Source: Candidatus Thorarchaeota archaeon
GTDB lineage: Archaea > Asgardarchaeota > Thorarchaeia > Thorarchaeales > Thorarchaeaceae
Direction of reading: 5' to 3'
Assembly (NCBI GenBank): GCA_003345555.1
Contig: PRDJ01000008.1
Span: 1 to 7,401, forward strand
Length of the DNA: 7,401 bases
A program made the translations under genes and the position numbers. The notes under the pieces were generated by a model. That model saw only the letters and a program-made list of their open reading frames with translations. It searched no databases and was not told where the DNA came from. Shown here in pieces: positions 1 to 7,269 of the stretch; position 1 is the first letter of the stretch, and every line of letters starts with the position of its first letter.

Positions 1-301
1 GCGTGCCTTCGGCCGTGGTCAGGCTGTAGAATCCGGGCTTGGGTACTTCTCTTAGTCGTATTTTCCCGTCGTATAGCCAGATACCCTTCTTGCCTGTAGG
101 CACCAGAGAAACGGGACCGTATCTTCGGATCATCTTGCCTGTTCGTACGGGGACTCCACATGCGCGGCCGTTCGGCAATACGAAATACCGACTGCCCACT
201 GGTCCAGCGCCGCCACGCCTACCCGCCCACTCTCCTTCGGGCAGAGTCACACCTTGAATCAATAGACGGACCTTGAGTGTGAGCATGTCTTCCGCATTCA
301 T
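1..301 (-). CDS. N-terminal part (100 codons, continues off the left edge) of a probable radical SAM protein, MSMEG_0568-like
   Basis: Manual translation from ATG at 301 gives a stop-free frame to the window edge: MNAEDMLTLKVRLLIQGVTLPEGEWAGRRGGAGPVGSRYFVLPNGRACGVPVRTGKMIRRYGPVSLVPTGKKGIWLYDGKIRLREVPKPGFYSLTTAEGT. It lies 39 nt after the upstream stop, on the same strand, with a weak AGGA 5 nt before the ATG (alternative ATG at 286). RRGGAGP and PxPxFYxLTTxxG match my recollection of the MSMEG_0568 family N-terminus. The CxxxCxxC motif would lie outside the window, so the family call is less certain than the CDS call. Confidence 0.65.
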   Translation of the reverse strand, partial: MNAEDMLTLKVRLLIQGVTLPEGEWAGRRGGAGPVGSRYFVLPNGRACGVPVRTGKMIRRYGPVSLVPTGKKGIWLYDGKIRLREVPKPGFYSLTTAEGT

Positions 302-340: not shown

Positions 341-1465
341 TCACATCTTGACCTTTGAGGTTGAGTCGAAGGCCGCCAAGACCATTTCTGGGAGGTCAAG
401 AACGATAAGCATCTTTCCTGCTCGAGAAGCCAGCATGTTCTTGCAGAAGGGACATGAGGTTACCAAGAACTTGGCTCCAACCTCCCTCGCCTGTGACACG
501 CGGGCATCGCCGATAGTGCTGGCTTGATCAGTGAATAGTGTCCTCATACCAGCACCATTGCCGCAGCACATGGCATTTTCCCTACTGCGGGCCATCTCGA
601 CCACTTTCGTGCCGGAGACTCTTTCAATGACTTTTCTCGGGGGGTCGTATATGCCACTGTGTCGGCCGAGGTGGCATGGGTCATGGTATGTGATAGGGCC
701 GCCGAAGTCAACTGCCCTCAGAGCATCCAAGTGCTTTTCGAGCAACTGACTAATGTGAAGTACTGGCTTCTTTAGTTCAATCCCGAGCTGGGGGTAATCC
801 TTGGTGAACGCTCTGAAGCATCCTGGACACGTCACAACTATCTGCTCACCTTCAGATTTGTTCAGGGTGTCTGCATTATGGCGGGCCTGCTCAATTCCTA
901 GGTTTCGAAAGCCTGTCCTGAAGAGTGGAGAACCGCAGCACCATTCGTCAGGGGTCACGGACACCTTGTACCCGAGGTGAGAAAGTATTGAAACGGTACT
1001 ACGAGCGATGCCGTTTTCATGATAAGCCGCCGTACAGCCTGTGAAGTAGAGGATCTTCTTGCCTTGGGTCTTTGTTGGTACAAACCACTTGTTGCGCTTT
1101 CCATGAGGCTCGGCGAAGGGATTATGATTGGTCTTTATTGCAGAGGATATCTTATCGAGACCTCGAGGATATCGACCTTCATTGACCAGCCTCATTCGTT
1201 CATTCTCGACCATTGTGGCTATGTCAACTTGTGGCAAGCACCATGTGAGACACTGAGAGCATTCGAGACACTGGTAGAGCACTTCAATTGCGCGCTCATC
1301 AAGAGCGCGTGTTCCTTTTGCATCCTGATACATTAGGAGCGCACGGCCATGCGGCGTGGGAGAATCGGATCGCCAGGCCAGAAAAGTCGGGCACATGTGC
1401 CTGCACATCTTAGGACAACCTGCACAAAGACGAAGCTGCTCGATGGCCTCCGAATCTTCCATCAC
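341..1465 (-). CDS. (Fe-S)-binding oxidoreductase subunit: two [4Fe-4S] motifs plus two CCG domains (GlpC/GlcF/HdrD superfamily)
   Basis: 374 aa. Contains CAGCPKMCRHMCP and CLECSQCLTWC; CCG domain 1 (YFTGC..WCCGSP..VTCPGC); CCG domain 2 (YHDPCHLGR..MCCGNG..TSCPFC). Start is GTG 1465 or ATG 1462, overlapping the upstream TGA (GTGATG). RBS GGGAGGA at 1471-1477. Confidence 0.9.
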   Translation of the reverse strand: MMEDSEAIEQLRLCAGCPKMCRHMCPTFLAWRSDSPTPHGRALLMYQDAKGTRALDERAIEVLYQCLECSQCLTWCLPQVDIATMVENERMRLVNEGRYPRGLDKISSAIKTNHNPFAEPHGKRNKWFVPTKTQGKKILYFTGCTAAYHENGIARSTVSILSHLGYKVSVTPDEWCCGSPLFRTGFRNLGIEQARHNADTLNKSEGEQIVVTCPGCFRAFTKDYPQLGIELKKPVLHISQLLEKHLDALRAVDFGGPITYHDPCHLGRHSGIYDPPRKVIERVSGTKVVEMARSRENAMCCGNGAGMRTLFTDQASTIGDARVSQAREVGAKFLVTSCPFCKNMLASRAGKMLIVLDLPEMVLAAFDSTSKVKM

Positions 1466-2889
1466 GTATGTCCTCCCATCCCGAGCTTACCAGGGTTCAT
1501 GATGCCGTTGGGGTCCAGAACTTCCTTGATTTTCTTCAAGACTTCGAAGCTAGACCCGAGTTCAGCCTCGGTGTAGGTGCTTCGAGTGGTTCCGACTCCG
1601 TGCTGATGGCTCATGGTGCCTCCTTCTCTCAAGCAAGCCGCTACCCCGTCATCCCAGATTTCGCGGTATGTGGCCCACGCGCTTTCGGCATCCGGCTGCG
1701 AAACGAAGAATATCATGTAGATGCTGCCGCCGTTGGGATACATGTGCGAGAAATGAGACATGACAGCAGCACCGTGGGCTTCCATAACCCGCTTCATTTC
1801 ATGATATACATTCTCAAGTCTGTCGTAGGTCGCAACGATATCGATCGTATCGCCCACAGAAAAGCCGCTGGTGGCGAATTTCGTAGGATAGTACATATCG
1901 TACCTGTGTTCCCACCAGTATTTTGAGGGCCCTTCCCCATAGTCCTTTGCTCCGTTCTCGATGCAAATCCTGGCAGAGATGCTCTCGTCTATGTCCACCT
2001 TCTCCGGCCTGCCATCGAATGCGAGCATTAGCATACAATTCCCTTCCTCAACCTCAAAGTGAGTGCTTACATGCAGCGCCGTGTCCTCGGCATCGTACAG
2101 GCGGACCACTGATGGGAATATGCCCTCTCTGAATATGGCCCGAATGGCCATCAGCCCGCTATGAACATCTGGGAAGCACATGCTTCTGAAGTGTCTTGAA
2201 GGTGGAAGGGGAAATAGACGAAGAGTCGCTTCCGTTATCACGCATAGCGTTCCTTCGGAGCCTATGAAAAGCTGCCTCAAATCCGGCCCAACAGAGTGGC
2301 GCGGGACGGCCTTGCATCTTACGACACTTCCATCCGCTAGAACGACTTCGAGTCCTAGTGTCAAGTCCTCGATTTTGCCGTAGAGAGATGACATAGAGCC
2401 GCCGGAACGAGTAGCGATGAAACCGCCGACGTTTGATGCTCTAAGGGAAGTGGGTGTATGACCGGTCGTGTAGCCGTGCCTATTGACTTCCTCTTCCAAG
2501 TCTATGCCTACAGTCCCAGCCTGCACGCGGACCAGCAGGGACTCACCATCGATGGCAAGAATCTTGTCCATGCGTTTCAGGTCAAGCTGAATTCCACCAT
2601 AGGTAGGTTGTGTTCCTCCACAGGTACCAGCACCCCCGCCAACAGGAACTACCGGCACTCTCAGATCGTTGGCGACCCTTAGGATCTTAGATACCTCCTC
2701 TGTCGACGATGGGTAGACAATCACATCTGCTAGCGGAAGGGTCTCGCCTGCCCTAATCTTGGCTTCGCTAAGCGGCCACGCGTCGTGGGCATTCAGGACT
2801 GCATCAGTCTCGTCAGTCGTGAAATGGTCCGGGCCCACGATAGCTTCAATCTGCTCCACTAACTTGGCCTTAGTTCTAGTATCCAACAA
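1462..2889 (-). CDS. FAD-binding oxidoreductase of the VAO/PCMH fold, alkyl-dihydroxyacetonephosphate synthase (AGPS/ADPS)-like
   Basis: 475 aa. FAD_binding_4 motifs: VIVYPSSTEEVSKIL, VPVGGG, GHTPTS..SNVGGFIATRSGG..SLYGKIEDL, GPDLRQLFIGSEGTLCVITEA. C-terminal motifs: VRLYDAEDT, SHFSHMYPNGGSIY, SHQHGVG, DPNGIMNPGKL. These resemble AGPS (RxYD, SHxY..xY, SHHHGVG) more than GlcD/D-lactate dehydrogenases (GEHG). TTG start with RBS GAGGTGA 7 nt upstream. Confidence 0.85.
   Translation of the reverse strand: MLDTRTKAKLVEQIEAIVGPDHFTTDETDAVLNAHDAWPLSEAKIRAGETLPLADVIVYPSSTEEVSKILRVANDLRVPVVPVGGGAGTCGGTQPTYGGIQLDLKRMDKILAIDGESLLVRVQAGTVGIDLEEEVNRHGYTTGHTPTSLRASNVGGFIATRSGGSMSSLYGKIEDLTLGLEVVLADGSVVRCKAVPRHSVGPDLRQLFIGSEGTLCVITEATLRLFPLPPSRHFRSMCFPDVHSGLMAIRAIFREGIFPSVVRLYDAEDTALHVSTHFEVEEGNCMLMLAFDGRPEKVDIDESISARICIENGAKDYGEGPSKYWWEHRYDMYYPTKFATSGFSVGDTIDIVATYDRLENVYHEMKRVMEAHGAAVMSHFSHMYPNGGSIYMIFFVSQPDAESAWATYREIWDDGVAACLREGGTMSHQHGVGTTRSTYTEAELGSSFEVLKKIKEVLDPNGIMNPGKLGMGGHT
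1471..1477 (-). promoter_or_regulatory. Shine-Dalgarno site for the second CCG gene (GGGAGGA)
   Basis: The minus strand reads GGGAGGA-catac-GTG-ATG. Confidence 0.7.
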
Positions 2890-2896
2890 TCACAGG

Positions 2897-2903
2897 TCAC
2901 CTC
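2897..2903 (-). promoter_or_regulatory. Shine-Dalgarno site for the AGPS-like gene (GAGGTGA)
   Basis: The minus strand reads GAGGTGA-cctgtga-TTG. The motif includes the glpC stop codon and lies 7 nt before TTG 2889. Confidence 0.75.
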
Positions 2904-4135
2904 TTTTGTGGGAGTCTGCGTGCGAAGAAGACTGTGAGATCCTCAACAACAGTTTGGCTGCCGGCGCGAAACAGATTGCTTTCAATCTGGGCGGTGCACA
3001 GCGGGCACGGCGTGACAACAGTGTCGGCCTCCGTAGAAGAAATTGCGGCAACGTTCTCTGTGACTACCGCATCAGCTACGTCTCTCGAATGATACCCTAC
3101 CATTCCTCCACCGCCACAGCAAGAGTCTGACATACCAGATTCCTCGATTGTGACACCGGGTATGAGGTTGAGAATGGCGCGAGCATGCTCCGCTATCTGT
3201 CGTGATGTATGCCGGATTATGTGGCATGGGTCATGGATTGTCACCTTTGCTGGAGTGAACCGGCCTCGGCCCTTAAACGGGCGAGAGACCTTGTTGAACC
3301 CAATCTCCTCAGCAAGGAACTCAACTAGATGGTAGACCGGTATTCCCCATCCATCACGCGCACTGATATCGCATAGATTCGAAGTGCAACCAGCACACGT
3401 CGTGACTATCTTCTTCACACCGAGGGATTTCACCTTGTCCTGAAGACGCCCCGCCAGCAATCGTGCGGTCTCATCGTCGCCTATCAGTTTTGAAGGAAGG
3501 CCGCAACAACTCATCTGATCCAGCAGAGTGTAATTGATTCCGAAATAGCTGAGAATGTACTTGGCTGCTTCCTTTACTTCTTGGGCGCGCTCCTCGGCTT
3601 GACATCCGGGATAGAACAACACATCTGCACCAGGCACAACACGGTCAGGAACAGAAGGCAGCCCCAAGGTCTCAAGTCGAACCTTGCGGCTCTCAGATTT
3701 CTCTTCCTGGTCAGCCCAAGGTTCGAAAGCGAGAGAGTGCTTCACGATTACGTCGTGTTCGTCAAGTAGGGCTTTTGGTACGAGGTCCGGTCTCTGTGCG
3801 AAGATTCTCGTGCGAATCATATTGACTACAGCAGGAATATTCACCTTTCTAGGGCAGACTTCTCGGCATGTGCCGCATCCAGTGCAAAGATACACCTTGT
3901 CACTGGTTGTCCAGAATTCGGGGGGAGAGCGACTCAGTTCAACTGCGATACTTCTCGGACCACTGAACCTCTCAACACCCACCGCTCTCACAACGGGGCA
4001 GTGACCAATGCACAGACCACAGTTGATGCAGCCCTCAACCGAACGGACAGCTTCGAGCTCGTCTCTCTTGAAGGGCTGAATCCGCTCGGCTTTCAGTGTC
4101 GCCTTGACAGCCTCGTAAGCTTGCTCGTCGCTCAA
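2897..4135 (-). CDS. glpC: Anaerobic glycerol-3-phosphate dehydrogenase subunit C-like Fe-S protein (2x[4Fe-4S] + 2 CCG domains)
   Basis: 412 aa. Contains CINCGLCIGHCP and CTGCGTCREVCP; CCG motifs FYPGC..SCCGLP..TTCAGC and IHDPCH..SCCGGGG..TPCPLC. It directly follows glpB, with a TTG start overlapping the glpB TGA (TTGA, 4132-4135). The glpC name rests on synteny plus domain architecture. Confidence 0.8.
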   Translation of the reverse strand: MSDEQAYEAVKATLKAERIQPFKRDELEAVRSVEGCINCGLCIGHCPVVRAVGVERFSGPRSIAVELSRSPPEFWTTSDKVYLCTGCGTCREVCPRKVNIPAVVNMIRTRIFAQRPDLVPKALLDEHDVIVKHSLAFEPWADQEEKSESRKVRLETLGLPSVPDRVVPGADVLFYPGCQAEERAQEVKEAAKYILSYFGINYTLLDQMSCCGLPSKLIGDDETARLLAGRLQDKVKSLGVKKIVTTCAGCTSNLCDISARDGWGIPVYHLVEFLAEEIGFNKVSRPFKGRGRFTPAKVTIHDPCHIIRHTSRQIAEHARAILNLIPGVTIEESGMSDSCCGGGGMVGYHSRDVADAVVTENVAAISSTEADTVVTPCPLCTAQIESNLFRAGSQTVVEDLTVFFARRLPQKR

Positions 4136-5505
4136 GGTAATGCCCCCTTGACATAATCTGCCGCATTTGCACCCGCAGCATAGCCGGTAGCGAGTGCTAC
4201 ACCGAGTCCACTTTTCTCTGCCGAGTAATTGTAGCGAGAGAGAATCGAGCCTGCGGCGAACACGTTGTCTGCTACAGGTTGGCCATCGGTGCCTGTCGGT
4301 CGAAACATGCTATCAAAAGCTACACCGACGCCAAAGAGAGAATGACCCTCGGGGCTCAGAGCCAAGATGTTGGTATAGCGTTGAGGCCTTGCTCCCGCAG
4401 TCTGGTATGACTCAACATCGACCACTGGCAATTTCACGAGTGTCTCAACGAAACCGCTTTCATCACCCTTGATGCCGCCTCCGATGAATTTACCAGAGGC
4501 GAGCACGACCGCAGCCGGGATTATGTTGAAGGTCCGTTGAGGGGTTTTCACAGCGACGCTATCGATGTGCCCTTCTTTCTTTTCAAATGAGACAGCCTCG
4601 TGACCGATGAGCAATCTGCCGCCGTCGGTGCTCAGCGCAGACTCCAGAGCATTCTGTAATCTGAGACCGGGAACTGAGGGTGGAAATGCCAGAAGCTCGA
4701 ATACTTTGGCACCCATCTTGTCTTCGAGCTCGAACTTGTTTGCCCTCGCTCGACGCAGACCCAAGACAGGAGGGAAGGCAATGAAGTCAGCTCCTGTACT
4801 TCTCACATGGTCTTTCAATGTCTTAGCCAGTTCAGCAAAGCCTTCCTCGCGATCCATATAGCGAGCAATATCAAACGAATAGATATTGTGAGGCTGCCCA
4901 AAAGGCAATACGTCCAATGTGCAGTTTGCCACTCTTCGGGGTCTGTTTTCTCCCGGTAGACGACTAGCTAAGAAGTTCTTGGCGGTAATCGATGAATTGC
5001 AGTCAGGGAAACCCCGAAAGCCAACAAAAAGAACGATGCTATCGTGCCAATCATCAGAACCTTCAACGAACATGGTTCCTTGGACCAATGATGTTGGCTT
5101 GGATGAGCCCAGCAATGTCACAGCCTGAATAGTACGTCCAAGGTCTCCAACCAATGCAGACGGCGAACCATTCAGCTTGCCCTTAATCCAGTCGACGGCC
5201 TCACTAACGCGCGCTACAACTCTTTCTGGATCCACAGGAAGACCTCCATCGGAATACCCCAGTACTGAATATGGGTGAAGAGGATAGATTTCCGACACCG
5301 CATTCAGGCCCTCAATCGCGTTCGCAAAAGGAACATTCGCACCGGGCAGGTAACTCATGATGTCTACAGCACCAGAGGATATTGCTGTCGCGCCTTGCCC
5401 CTTACGTAAGACGACAACCTTCAGGCCTGCTTCCGCACCAACCATTCCTGCAACAAGACCAGCCATTCCACCGCCAACGACGAGCAGGTCAGCCTTGATA
5501 TCCAT
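4132..5505 (-). CDS. glpB: Anaerobic glycerol-3-phosphate dehydrogenase subunit B (flavoprotein)
   Basis: 457 aa. N-terminal VVGGGMAGLVAG, GQGATAISSGAVD, FPPSVPGLRLQNAL, VLASGKFIGGGI, NVFAAGSIL and SGLGVALATG match GlpB motifs as I recall them (e.g. SSGSLDLL, PPSVLGIRL, LASGSFFSGGL). The ATG immediately follows the glpA TAG. RBS GAGGAGG at 5514-5520. Confidence 0.92.
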   Translation of the reverse strand: MDIKADLLVVGGGMAGLVAGMVGAEAGLKVVVLRKGQGATAISSGAVDIMSYLPGANVPFANAIEGLNAVSEIYPLHPYSVLGYSDGGLPVDPERVVARVSEAVDWIKGKLNGSPSALVGDLGRTIQAVTLLGSSKPTSLVQGTMFVEGSDDWHDSIVLFVGFRGFPDCNSSITAKNFLASRLPGENRPRRVANCTLDVLPFGQPHNIYSFDIARYMDREEGFAELAKTLKDHVRSTGADFIAFPPVLGLRRARANKFELEDKMGAKVFELLAFPPSVPGLRLQNALESALSTDGGRLLIGHEAVSFEKKEGHIDSVAVKTPQRTFNIIPAAVVLASGKFIGGGIKGDESGFVETLVKLPVVDVESYQTAGARPQRYTNILALSPEGHSLFGVGVAFDSMFRPTGTDGQPVADNVFAAGSILSRYNYSAEKSGLGVALATGYAAGANAADYVKGALP

Positions 5506-7158
5506 CTAGCTCGCCTCCTCCCAAGGCTTGGGCTCGTAATGCGCGTCGGAGCGGTCTAGGTTTGCCACGCAGGCATAGATTCCCTGTACAACTTCCTCCT
5601 GACTGAGCTGCTCTCCTCTCATCGGCGGTCTCTTGCCCTTCCATCGCTCAGATAGGTAATCCAGTATTTCGAGCTGGAATTGCTCTCCGGAGAGTCCGAG
5701 TTCGTCTGCCAATATGCCCGCGGCCTTGAATGTGCATAGTGTGCCTTGACAGGGTCCCGTACCTAATCTGACACGCCGCCTGAGGTCGTTCAATGTCTGG
5801 GGGAATTCCTCACGTATTGCATACCTAATCTCCGCCTCGATTACTGGCTCGCAAGCGCATATAGTTGAAAGCCATTCTGGATGCTCGCGAGTGAGTTCAA
5901 GCACTTTGCCAAGCTCGGTTCCTCTTCTCGCCCTCAGTCTCTCAACTGCGTGCCGAGAGATATTGTACTGCGCAGCCAAGGCAAGTACATCAACACTTGC
6001 TTCATTGCCAGGCAAAGGCTCGATATGGGTTGTGCACTTAATGTCCTTGCCGAGCTTCTTGCACACCATGTCTGTGACACTCTCAGCCATGTGGCGGCAC
6101 ATGACAAGCTTCCCGCCGGTGAAGCTCAGTAGTCCATCAATGCCGTCCGGTGCGTGGTCCACCACCTGATAGCCCCGAGTGACCTTCCCTTCTGGTATCT
6201 TCCACTGCGCTACTAGAGGGCGTGCACCTTCCATGGTTCTGATTATCCGAGCTTGCCTTATCGATGGTACTACCCATTCGATGCTCTTTAGCAGGTACTC
6301 TATCTCATCGTACGACGCAACTAGAGTATCTGGGTCTTCCCAGCTATCTAGCGCAGTTGTGCCTAACAAAGCGGTGTTCTCGTGCGGAAAGAGGTATATC
6401 ATTCGCCCGTCAACAGCCTTCGCAATTATACCAACATTCACGACCCGTCTGTCCAATATCACGTGTGCGCCCTTGTTCAGACGGATTTCGAGACGAGCAT
6501 TCAGTAGACCTGCAATCTTGTCCGCCCAAGGACCCCCTGCGTTCACAACTACCTTTGCTGTGACCAACTCCTTCTGAGCGGTCAACCGGTTGAAGAAGGC
6601 GACTTCAATCATGTTGCCTGAAGTTTTCTTCATTTCGGTGACTTCACAGTAGGTGCGGATGTCTGCGCCTCGCCTACGCGCATCAAGAGCCTGCAGGATG
6701 CATAGACGGAATGGATCAATGAAGTACTCCTCGAAGTACATCGAAGCAATCAGCTCGGGGTTTATCTTCGGTTCAATCTTCAGTGAATCCTCCGGTGTGA
6801 GAAACAAAACAGGGGGGACATCGCGGCTAGCTGCACGCTTGGAATACTCTTCAGCAAAGTTCCCTCCGCTTGATAGGTCACTCATTTCCAGCATCGGAGT
6901 GAGAATGGGATTCTTCATTATGATGTTCTGGGCTATGCGTTTGAAATAGACTACTTCCTGAGAGCACATGTCGACAATGTCTGGTTCTTCCATGTACTTC
7001 AGACCAGACGATATCATGCCGGCACAGGTTCCCACTGTTGCAGATGCTATGTCGTCTCGTTCCAGCATTAGGGTCTTCAGGCCACGCATAGCGCAATCAC
7101 GGGCGACAGCAGTCCCGGTGCTGCCACCGCCAATGATAATCACATCATACTCATTCAT
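5506..7158 (-). CDS. glpA: Anaerobic glycerol-3-phosphate dehydrogenase subunit A-like FAD enzyme with C-terminal BFD-like [2Fe-2S] domain; divergent active-site motifs
   Basis: About 550 aa from ATG 7158 (MNEYDVIIIGGGSTG). Contains ERDDIA, VVNAGGPWA, KGAHV, GTT, GARPL, TRGY..DH, GGKL and C-terminal CACE..RRRVRLGTGPCQGTLC. The ORF track start (TTG 7191) adds 11 residues before the Rossmann motif and is less likely. Confidence 0.92.
   Translation of the reverse strand: MNEYDVIIIGGGSTGTAVARDCAMRGLKTLMLERDDIASATVGTCAGMISSGLKYMEEPDIVDMCSQEVVYFKRIAQNIIMKNPILTPMLEMSDLSSGGNFAEEYSKRAASRDVPPVLFLTPEDSLKIEPKINPELIASMYFEEYFIDPFRLCILQALDARRRGADIRTYCEVTEMKKTSGNMIEVAFFNRLTAQKELVTAKVVVNAGGPWADKIAGLLNARLEIRLNKGAHVILDRRVVNVGIIAKAVDGRMIYLFPHENTALLGTTALDSWEDPDTLVASYDEIEYLLKSIEWVVPSIRQARIIRTMEGARPLVAQWKIPEGKVTRGYQVVDHAPDGIDGLLSFTGGKLVMCRHMAESVTDMVCKKLGKDIKCTTHIEPLPGNEASVDVLALAAQYNISRHAVERLRARRGTELGKVLELTREHPEWLSTICACEPVIEAEIRYAIREEFPQTLNDLRRRVRLGTGPCQGTLCTFKAAGILADELGLSGEQFQLEILDYLSERWKGKRPPMRGEQLSQEEVVQGIYACVANLDRSDAHYEPKPWEEAS
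5514..5520 (-). promoter_or_regulatory. Shine-Dalgarno site for glpB (GAGGAGG)
   Basis: The minus strand reads GAGGAGG-cgagc-TAG-ATG, placing the motif 8 nt before the glpB ATG, inside the last codons of glpA. Confidence 0.75.
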
Positions 7159-7269
7159 CGATGGTCCGAGCTCCGGTACAGTTCCCGGCAAGGAAACCGC
7201 GTGTTCATGGGTTCAGCACTTCGACAGTAGTAGCTGATTCATGTCGCAAATAGAAGTGTTTCGGATTAT

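Follow-up and report, generated by a model that had tools for sequence, protein, structure and literature searches.

The DNA analysed here (the window) is a complete contig of 7,401 nt, with every gene on the minus strand, from a Candidatus Thorarchaeota archaeon (contig PRDJ01000008.1, designated C8, of assembly GCA_003345555.1; 2.28 Mb, 93.5 % complete). Read along that strand, its genes encode a GlpABC-like glycerol-3-phosphate dehydrogenase, a flavoprotein of the VAO/PCMH family that resembles alkyldihydroxyacetonephosphate synthase (AGPS) and is presumed to bind flavin adenine dinucleotide (FAD), an iron-sulfur (Fe-S) protein with two CCG domains, and the 5' part of a radical SAM protein (Table 1). 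Close homologues bear Thorarchaeota names, in line with this origin. AGPS carries out no net redox chemistry. The preliminary description of this DNA had nevertheless proposed that the flavoprotein may be a redox enzyme, built on the AGPS scaffold and served by its own CCG subunit. That proposal gained support from the pairing of the two genes across the Asgard archaea, from natural fusions bearing the AGPS signature and from a model of the complex.

Table 1. Coordinates of the genes and motifs of the window and the basis for each assignment
Feature	Coordinates	Strand	Basis
glpA-like FAD glycerol-3-phosphate dehydrogenase subunit (DAO, DAO_C, BFD-like 2Fe-2S)	5506..7191	-	Pfam; TIGR03377 417 bits, below the cut-off of 553
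glpB-like subunit	4132..5505	-	TIGR03378 202 bits, above the cut-off of 174
glpC-like 2x[4Fe-4S]+2xCCG subunit, the other CCG protein of the operon	2897..4135	-	Pfam, NCBIfam, cysteine motifs
AGPS-like (HHH-clade) VAO/PCMH flavoprotein, 475 aa, presumed catalytic FAD subunit	1462..2889	-	Pfam, PDB sequence matches, AF2 fold, tree
Arg263, equivalent of AGPS Arg419 (VVRLYD)	2101..2103	-	HMMER alignment to 4bby; codon checked
Tyr391, equivalent of AGPS Tyr578 (GGSIYMIF)	1717..1719	-	HMMER alignment; codon checked
His428-Gln429-His430, H-Q-H form of the AGPS HHH loop (SHQHGVG)	1600..1608	-	HMMER alignment; codon checked
Coupling junction: GGGAGGA, then GTG (1465-1463) or ATG (1462-1460); TGA stop at 1464-1462	1460..1482	-	
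HdrD/GlcF/GlpC-like Fe-S protein, 374 aa, soluble, presumed electron-transfer subunit	341..1465	-	Pfam, NCBIfam, complex model
First ferredoxin-type motif CAGCPKMCRHMC, C14-x2-C-x3-C-x3-C25, unusual spacing	1391..1426	-	residues 15-23 in predicted interface
Second ferredoxin-type motif CLECSQCLTWC, C66-x2-C-x2-C-x3-C76	1238..1270	-	
CCG domain 1: C144, C176-C177-G, C213-x2-C216	818..1036	-	
CCG domain 2: C264, C300-C301-G, C338-x2-C341	443..676	-	
Radical SAM gene (MSMEG_0568-like), 5' part only, co-oriented	2..301 (start at 301)	-	NCBIfam

On the minus strand, the sequence at the junction between the flavoprotein gene and the CCG gene is GGGATGGGAGGACATACGTGATGGAAGA. Here the flavoprotein gene ends in a TGA that overlaps the GTG start of the CCG gene by 4 nt, or the ATG that follows by 1 nt, and the sequence GGGAGGA lies 6–9 nt 5' of the CCG start. 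Both open reading frames (ORFs) and their overlap (GTGATG) were thus confirmed as previously described. The G-run, which resembles a ribosome-binding site, falls within codons for the conserved Gly-rich C-terminus of the flavoprotein. Intergenic gaps along the operon were, in order, 0, −4, 7, −4 and 39 nt. The tight packing of the flavoprotein and CCG genes is not particular to this pair, being one of two overlaps in a compact operon.

The flavoprotein matched the Pfam domains FAD_binding_4 (2.5e-40) and FAD-oxidase_C (3.3e-37). Among solved structures, the top sequence matches were AGPS from Dictyostelium (2uuu, 9.2e-62) and from guinea pig (4bby, 2.5e-54), followed by LctD (1.4e-45), LDHD and a glycolate oxidase. 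An AlphaFold2 (AF2) model with a mean predicted local distance difference test (pLDDT) score of 93.8 was used for a fold search, in which AGPS chains again ranked best (TMq 0.88–0.91, with 0.90 to 4bby/5ae3) and mouse LDHD reached 0.85–0.86. Equivalents of Arg419 and Tyr578, catalytic residues of AGPS that, by the titles of PDB entries 4bc7 and 4bca, are mutated in those structures, are present. The SHQHGVG loop aligns with SHHHGVG of AGPS (His615-His616-His617), with the outer His residues kept and the middle His replaced by Gln. The name 'AGPS-like' given in the preliminary description is therefore accurate by sequence, fold and key residues. No histidine of the GGGH type, to which FAD is covalently attached, was found in the FAD loop (PVGGGAGT).

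The same residues define a large family. Across 50 family members, the Arg, Tyr and HHH-loop residues were invariant or nearly so, and Arg263 was invariant both in these and in all sampled Asgard orthologues. AGPS-type residues were kept in every sampled Asgard orthologue and in none of the GlcD-like paralogues of the source genome. The H-Q-H form of the loop occurs in Thorarchaeota and in one further Asgard family (f12), and another family (f13) has SHHHSIG (variants noted at loci L045 and L046); other Asgard orthologues have HHH. Among 263 relatives drawn from two large protein collections, approximately 230 contained xHHHG[VI]G and approximately 12 contained the G-E-H-G motif of 2-hydroxy-acid dehydrogenases. 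A maximum-likelihood tree of 111 prokaryotic sequences separated an HHH-type clade (Shimodaira-Hasegawa-like approximate likelihood ratio test (SH-aLRT) 95) from the G-E-H-G clade of GlcD and LDHD (SH-aLRT 99). Two long candidates (P0238 and P0269) were no nearer to AGPS than is the flavoprotein of the window.

A genuine alkyl-dihydroxyacetone phosphate (DHAP) synthase, making ether lipids on a sn-glycerol-3-phosphate (G3P) or DHAP backbone in an Asgard archaeon, would account for AGPS being the closest solved relative, for the retained catalytic residues and for the adjoining DHAP-producing GlpABC. However, the flavoprotein has a redox partner and lacks the N-terminal domain of AGPS, which in the mammalian enzyme contributes a gating helix and a lipid tunnel: its residue 9 aligns to residue 93 of the Dictyostelium protein and residue 26 to residue 178 of the guinea-pig protein, and it is 475 aa long against 584 and 658 aa for AGPS. 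A search of the genome (93.5 % complete) for a PF01553 (GNPAT-type) acyltransferase found none, and PF07993 (NAD_binding_4; for FAR) gave only weak matches. The genome encodes an EgsA-like candidate for sn-glycerol-1-phosphate (G1P) dehydrogenase and GpsA was not found in it, a combination that would be expected for an ordinary archaeal lipid backbone. A survey of the plasmalogen pathway did not find it in Archaea (bioRxiv 10.1101/2025.10.10.681575). Ether-lipid synthesis is therefore an extremely unlikely function, and the pair is most likely not an ether-lipid synthase.

The union of a VAO flavoprotein with a CCG protein is also the architecture of GlcDF and Dld-HdrD, and the flavoprotein scored 227 bits against the GlcD model TIGR00387. 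The pair might accordingly be an ordinary GlcD/GlcF-type dehydrogenase of D-lactate, glycolate or another D-2-hydroxy acid, acting for example on D-lactate from a methylglyoxal bypass of glycerol metabolism, and the lactaldehyde-dehydrogenase-like gene found downstream in relatives would fit such a role. The GlcD score is, however, far below the cut-off of 568, the SHQHGVG loop and Tyr391 occupy the places of G-E-H-G and the metal-binding His, and the protein falls in the separate, supported clade described above. Moreover, the source genome contains several true GlcD-like proteins with CCG partners of their own: at least five other VAO paralogues (L002, L005, L006, L007 and L008, on contigs C20, C6, C35 and C25) have a CCG gene directly beside them. 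With approximately 15 CCG-domain proteins (30 domain hits), the set of flavoprotein/CCG modules in this genome is unusually large. A D-2-hydroxy-acid dehydrogenase is thus a very improbable identity for the pair. Complexes of HdrD with GlcD have been proposed in other archaea (PMC6783470), and the shared arrangement indicates that the AGPS-like protein is wired in the same way as its dehydrogenase paralogues.

The CCG partner matched Pfam CCG in two stretches (2.2e-37) and Fer4_8. All 18 of its cysteines belong to one of four motifs, two of the ferredoxin type and two complete ones of the form CX(n)CCGX(m)CXXC, in full agreement with its earlier description as a 2x[4Fe-4S]+2xCCG protein. No hydrophobic or membrane segment was found in the partner or in any of the five operon proteins. 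Scores against NCBIfam models were all below the cut-offs (TfrB 196 of 385, GlpC 116 of 278, GlcF 75 of 333 and HdrB 55 of 345 bits), as was a match to LdhH, and TfrB was the top match of both CCG proteins of the operon. Public annotations read '(Fe-S)-binding protein' or 'heterodisulfide reductase subunit D'. The partner is thus a soluble protein of the HdrD/GlcF class that belongs to no named equivalog.

The resemblance to TfrB raises the question of direction, since in TfrAB the substrate is reduced at the flavin. Electrons from G3P oxidation by GlpAB/GlpC could pass through the second CCG protein to the AGPS-like flavin and reduce a co-substrate there, providing an internal sink for fermentative growth. 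The presence of two CCG proteins and two flavoenzymes in one tightly packed operon, where neither a membrane anchor nor an external acceptor is evident, is consistent with this route. It is, however, hard to reconcile with the fact that GlpABC does not adjoin the module in most other Asgard families, nor in Spirochaetota, Clostridia, Planctomycetota or the Bacillota fusions described below. VAO-family enzymes are also overwhelmingly oxidative, and no candidate oxidant is encoded nearby. A reductase of this kind is consequently regarded as quite improbable.

Alignments of both proteins were used to model the flavoprotein with the CCG partner (1462–2889 with 341–1465). The three runs gave scores of 0.89, 0.88 and 0.89, compared with 0.00 for the best of three controls. 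The complex proposed in the preliminary description therefore passed its controls; the score mark applied is reached by 58 of 80 solved complexes and by 2 of 110 mismatched pairs. The runs shared at least 94 % of contacts, with a pLDDT of at least 91 for the partner. Residues 9–78 of the partner, which include both ferredoxin motifs, were placed on loops 85–88, 103–108, 127–137 and 148–151 of the FAD domain, the first of which belongs to the PVGGGAGT loop. Neither protein had a PDB sequence match that was named as a VAO-CCG complex, so the pass is unlikely to reflect a solved complex already known to the predictor. These predictions support binding of the flavoprotein to its CCG partner, and the modelled placement of the ferredoxin domain on the FAD domain is as would be expected for electron transfer from flavin to cluster.

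Orthologues of the flavoprotein (E≤1e-60) were detected in 116 of 201 sampled Asgard genomes. The order glpB, glpC, VAO, CCG, radical SAM was found in all 29 Thorarchaeota-family loci surveyed, with the CCG gene directly after the flavoprotein gene, and the pairing was additionally present in L009 and L010. With starts as assigned here, overlaps of 4 or 1 nt were found in 27 of the 29 loci and in the window, L009 and L010. In other Asgard archaea, the CCG gene directly followed the flavoprotein gene in 18 of 20 loci from 13 families, with gaps of less than 170 nt by rough start calls. One of the two exceptions (L043:3884-6988; genome G038, family f19) has approximately 3.1 kb between the two genes, with four opposite-strand ORFs that had no Pfam match. 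In the other (L045), the CCG gene is approximately 0.6 kb away and in two pieces. An apparent absence of the CCG gene from a complete Thorarchaeota genome (L009) was rejected: the start is present with a 4-nt overlap and the gene runs into a stretch of Ns at an assembly gap.

Among bacteria, a CCG neighbour was found for members from Spirochaetota, Clostridia and Planctomycetota (N[DE]HH variant). Members from Actinomycetota, Binatia, Caulobacterales and Bacteroidales have a GlpD-like neighbour, usually with an FGGY kinase, and no CCG gene. The expectation that orthologues of the flavoprotein are usually accompanied by a CCG gene thus held in the Asgard archaea and the nearest bacterial subclades but failed in the more distant Actinomycetota and Proteobacteria-type members, where a GlpD-like gene is the partner. 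Several variants of these layouts were observed. Tandem VAO-VAO proteins of approximately 950 aa (P0121, P0272, P0286 and approximately 100 others), mostly from Myxococcota, carry the HHH signature in the first half only; where the neighbourhood was examined, a CCG gene came next, giving a layout like GlcD-GlcE-GlcF on an AGPS scaffold. In the N[DE]HH subclade (e.g. Thermoguttaceae; L063:9574-11321 and two related loci), the VAO-CCG pair is succeeded by genes for a class II aldolase and a PfkB kinase, which hints at a ketose-phosphate substrate in that subclade. An alpha/beta hydrolase gene (Abhydrolase_1) follows the VAO-CCG-kinase module in Asgard family f9 (L049:11319-12149 and others).

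Natural fusions of the two proteins, for which a search had been suggested, were found in four cases: P0145 (894 aa), P0329 and P0335 (both Bacillota, approximately 908 aa) and P0370 (1139 aa). All four join flavoprotein, Fe-S and CCG modules and keep the AGPS-type signature, with SHHHG[VI]G, HxSHxY...Y and the Arg motif VVRLYD (VLRVYD in P0370), together with two CCG motifs. Their first cluster motif, CAICPNMCRFDC, is of the same odd type as CAGCPKMCRHMC in the window. The fused Fe-S module aligned over its full length with the CCG partner of the window (92.8 bits), whereas its alignment with the GlpC of the operon (64.3 bits) began only at the second cluster motif.

Other fusions join the VAO protein to dehydrogenases, kinases or a phosphatase. 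GlpD/GlpA-like proteins (DAO plus DAO_C) are fused to VAO in P0357 and P0372, and the DAO domain only in P0352, P0353 and P0359. Kinase fusions were of the FGGY (P0365 and P0376) and PfkB (P0221) families, and one protein (P0208) combines a HAD phosphatase with VAO. The kinase, GlpD-like and phosphatase fusions point to the substrate class. In the same direction, the set that is constant across Asgard families consists of the FGGY kinase, VAO and CCG genes, with the kinase adjacent in most loci and GlpABC in only some. In the source genome, the orthologous FGGY kinase gene lies at the extreme end of contig C58 (G000:C58:10669-12132, plus strand) and its product is 89 % identical to that of the kinase gene upstream of glpA in a genome of the same genus (G152). 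Its terminal position suggests that C58 and the contig of the window probably adjoin in the genome.

No GlpA/GlpD (DAO_C) protein was found in two genomes with the kinase-VAO-CCG module (G112 and G007, both 96 % complete and well assembled), which suggests that the kinase product can serve the pair directly as substrate. A general replacement of GlpA/GlpD by VAO-CCG was rejected: in most Asgard families the module is accompanied by a DAO_C protein, only families f2, f8, f20 and f23 mostly lacking one that scored above the cut-off, and GlpA/D occurs in several families that do not have the module. These distributions indicate that the pair is not simply an alternative G3P dehydrogenase.

The gene neighbourhoods can also be read in terms of redox-neutral chemistry of the AGPS type. 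Here the kinase and GlpABC or GlpD would make a 1-O-substituted DHAP from a glycerol derivative, for example a glyceryl ether or glycoside, and a flavin-N5 adduct would expel the C1 substituent and free DHAP; the CCG protein would only keep the flavin oxidised in a reducing cytoplasm, or would be regulatory. The order kinase, GlpD/GlpABC-like, AGPS-like mirrors the type of substrate used by AGPS, and the whole clade conserves the catalytic set of AGPS (Arg419, Tyr578 and, in the HHH loop, the two outer His). The existence of GlpD-VAO fusions, the dispensability of the Fe-S partner in most bacterial members and the scores of GlpA and GlpC below equivalog cut-offs, by which the substrate may not be plain G3P, also fit. 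An overlapping and sometimes fused four-cluster protein would, however, be a costly accessory, and its strict retention is poorly explained. Some kinase-VAO-CCG modules lack an adjacent GlpABC, and in the few genomes without detected GlpA/GlpD there would be no maker of the keto substrate. The flavoprotein also lacks the N-terminal domain with which mammalian AGPS forms its gating helix and lipid tunnel. Redox-neutral chemistry is thus considered rather unlikely.

The reading preferred here, with a probability of roughly 60 %, is that the two proteins form a soluble flavin/Fe-S dehydrogenase that acts on a small phosphorylated compound of the glycerol type. To our knowledge, AGPS is the only non-redox member of the VAO family, so that redox chemistry is the default expectation for its relatives. 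The AGPS-like subunit would bind FAD non-covalently and oxidise its substrate at the Arg/Tyr/His active site that it has in common with AGPS. That substrate would be the product of the FGGY kinase, which is encoded first in the operon of relatives, or a derivative of this product, with G3P, G1P, DHAP or a DHAP derivative as candidates. The flavin would give up two electrons to the pair of [4Fe-4S] clusters in the ferredoxin domain docked on the FAD domain, from where they would move to the two CCG (HdrB-type) clusters and finally to a soluble acceptor, for which a disulfide is suggested only by comparison with HdrD and TfrB.

Several observations weigh against such a dehydrogenase. The conserved residues are the AGPS set for non-redox enolate/flavin-N5 adduct chemistry, whereas related dehydrogenases of 2-hydroxy acids have a His/His/Glu metal site. 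The operon already encodes a complete GlpABC with a CCG subunit, next to which a second glycerol-phosphate dehydrogenase looks redundant. No acceptor was identified, nor a membrane segment among the five proteins. A CCG neighbour was present at only approximately 6 of approximately 45 sampled bacterial HHH-type loci, which indicates that the flavoprotein can work without one. Assignment of the operon kinase as a glycerol kinase was not supported (150–180 bits against a cut-off of 590); the protein is nearer to XylB and autoinducer-2 (AI-2) kinase models, all below cut-offs. Together with the scores of GlpA and GlpC, this non-canonical kinase suggests that the substrate may be a derivative of glycerol rather than glycerol itself. 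Finally, deletion of the Pseudomonas aeruginosa operon PA3026-PA3025-PA3024, which contains a counterpart of the family, was without phenotype (PMC8151288).

Two specific forms of redox enzyme had been suggested in the preliminary description: a glycerol-phosphate dehydrogenase of opposite stereospecificity, and release of the flavin adduct by oxidation or reduction. A form of oxidation that retains the AGPS active-site chemistry can indeed be envisaged. An AGPS-type enolate/N5 adduct on DHAP, or on a C1-substituted DHAP made by the kinase and GlpABC, might collapse oxidatively, with two electrons leaving through the Fe-S and CCG clusters and a 2-oxo-aldehyde phosphate released for the aldehyde dehydrogenase encoded at the end of the operon in relatives. 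In a variant of equal rank, the pair would be a missing flavin-linked G1P dehydrogenase that acts alongside a G3P-specific GlpABC. Both are speculative and, on balance, unlikely. If true, the oxidative collapse of the adduct would provide a living example of the redox ancestor of eukaryotic ether-lipid synthesis.

The wider operon was compared with those of relatives. The gene order in a genome of the same genus (L143) is FGGY kinase, glpA, glpB, glpC, VAO, CCG, radical SAM, GNAT, an IS605 insertion and aldehyde dehydrogenase, and the operon order is repeated on a more distant Thorarchaeota-like contig (L010). Genes 3' of the CCG gene in Thorarchaeota relatives thus encode a radical SAM protein, a GNAT acetyltransferase and a long aldehyde dehydrogenase (L010:10551-13991; L143:2476-7269), the last of which had a lactaldehyde dehydrogenase model as its top match, with a score below the cut-off. 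The radical SAM gene was downstream in all Thorarchaeota-family loci surveyed, and a full-length orthologue scored 280 bits against TIGR04043 (MSMEG_0568 family), just below the cut-off of 303.7. The radical SAM-GNAT pair resembles part of a Nit1C-type cluster. In L143, the genes for GNAT and aldehyde dehydrogenase are separated by an inserted IS605 OrfB/TnpB-type gene (L143:4225-5448, plus strand), and glpA and the CCG gene are each split into two ORF pieces, possibly owing to frameshifts or assembly errors.

The flavoprotein belongs to a large prokaryotic sister family of AGPS that has the same active-site residues and is tied to a presumed electron-transfer subunit; the two genes overlap in Asgard archaea and are fused in some bacteria. 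Members are spread over many bacterial phyla, always in a glycerol-phosphate or sugar-kinase context, and none has a known reaction. Solving the reaction of the present pair would supply a missing piece of anaerobic glycerol and glycerolipid metabolism and would relate the chemistry of AGPS to ordinary flavin dehydrogenation. It would also correct the widespread automatic label 'alkyldihydroxyacetonephosphate synthase' in archaeal genomes, a label that might be mistaken for evidence that Asgard archaea make ether lipids as eukaryotes do.

Among known systems, AGPS itself (also ADPS, EC 2.5.1.26; 2uuu and 4bby) shares with the flavoprotein the two-domain VAO/PCMH fold and the equivalents of Arg419, Tyr578 and His615/His617. 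The flavoprotein differs in lacking the N-terminal domain of 90–170 residues, in the Gln at the middle of the HHH loop, in its dedicated Fe-S/CCG partner and in its setting, a kinase/GlpABC operon in a genome where no GNPAT-type acyltransferase was found. TfrAB and HdrD resemble the pair as soluble enzymes of flavoprotein and CCG protein in which the flavin reaction is coupled to thiol/disulfide chemistry at the CCG clusters. The CCG protein of the window nevertheless reaches only 196 bits against the TfrB cut-off of 385, and the TfrAB flavoprotein is of a different fold family. We know of no coenzyme M- or coenzyme B-type thiol in Asgard archaea.

The sole counterpart of the family found in the literature was the P. 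aeruginosa operon, the genes of which are annotated as an FAD oxidoreductase for the AGPS step, a GlpD homologue and an FGGY kinase; it belongs to the GliR regulon and is induced more than 100-fold by GliR (PMC8151288). Judged by annotation, the same genes accompany many bacterial members of the HHH clade. The operon comes from an aerobe and has no CCG subunit. A search of the literature on mycobacterial Rv2251/glpD1 yielded nothing useful. Escherichia coli YdiJ (D-2-hydroxyglutarate dehydrogenase, NF049975) combines the same three modules (VAO, Fe-S and CCG) as the fusions P0145, P0329, P0335 and P0370. The match is, however, limited to the FAD domain (122 bits against a cut-off of 1350) and the fusions carry the AGPS-type signature. 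GlcDEF, Dld-HdrD-like enzymes and archaeal HdrD-GlcD (PMC6783470) share with the pair a VAO flavoprotein adjoining a 2x[4Fe-4S]+2xCCG subunit, and the Myxococcota tandem proteins with their CCG genes mirror the layout of GlcD-GlcE-GlcF. In contrast to GlcD/GlcF, the flavoprotein of the window falls in the HHH clade and not in the G-E-H-G metal-site clade, and both subunits score far below the respective cut-offs. A VAO flavoprotein with a CCG subunit is a known kind of enzyme, of which the pairing with a flavoprotein of AGPS signature is an undescribed variant.

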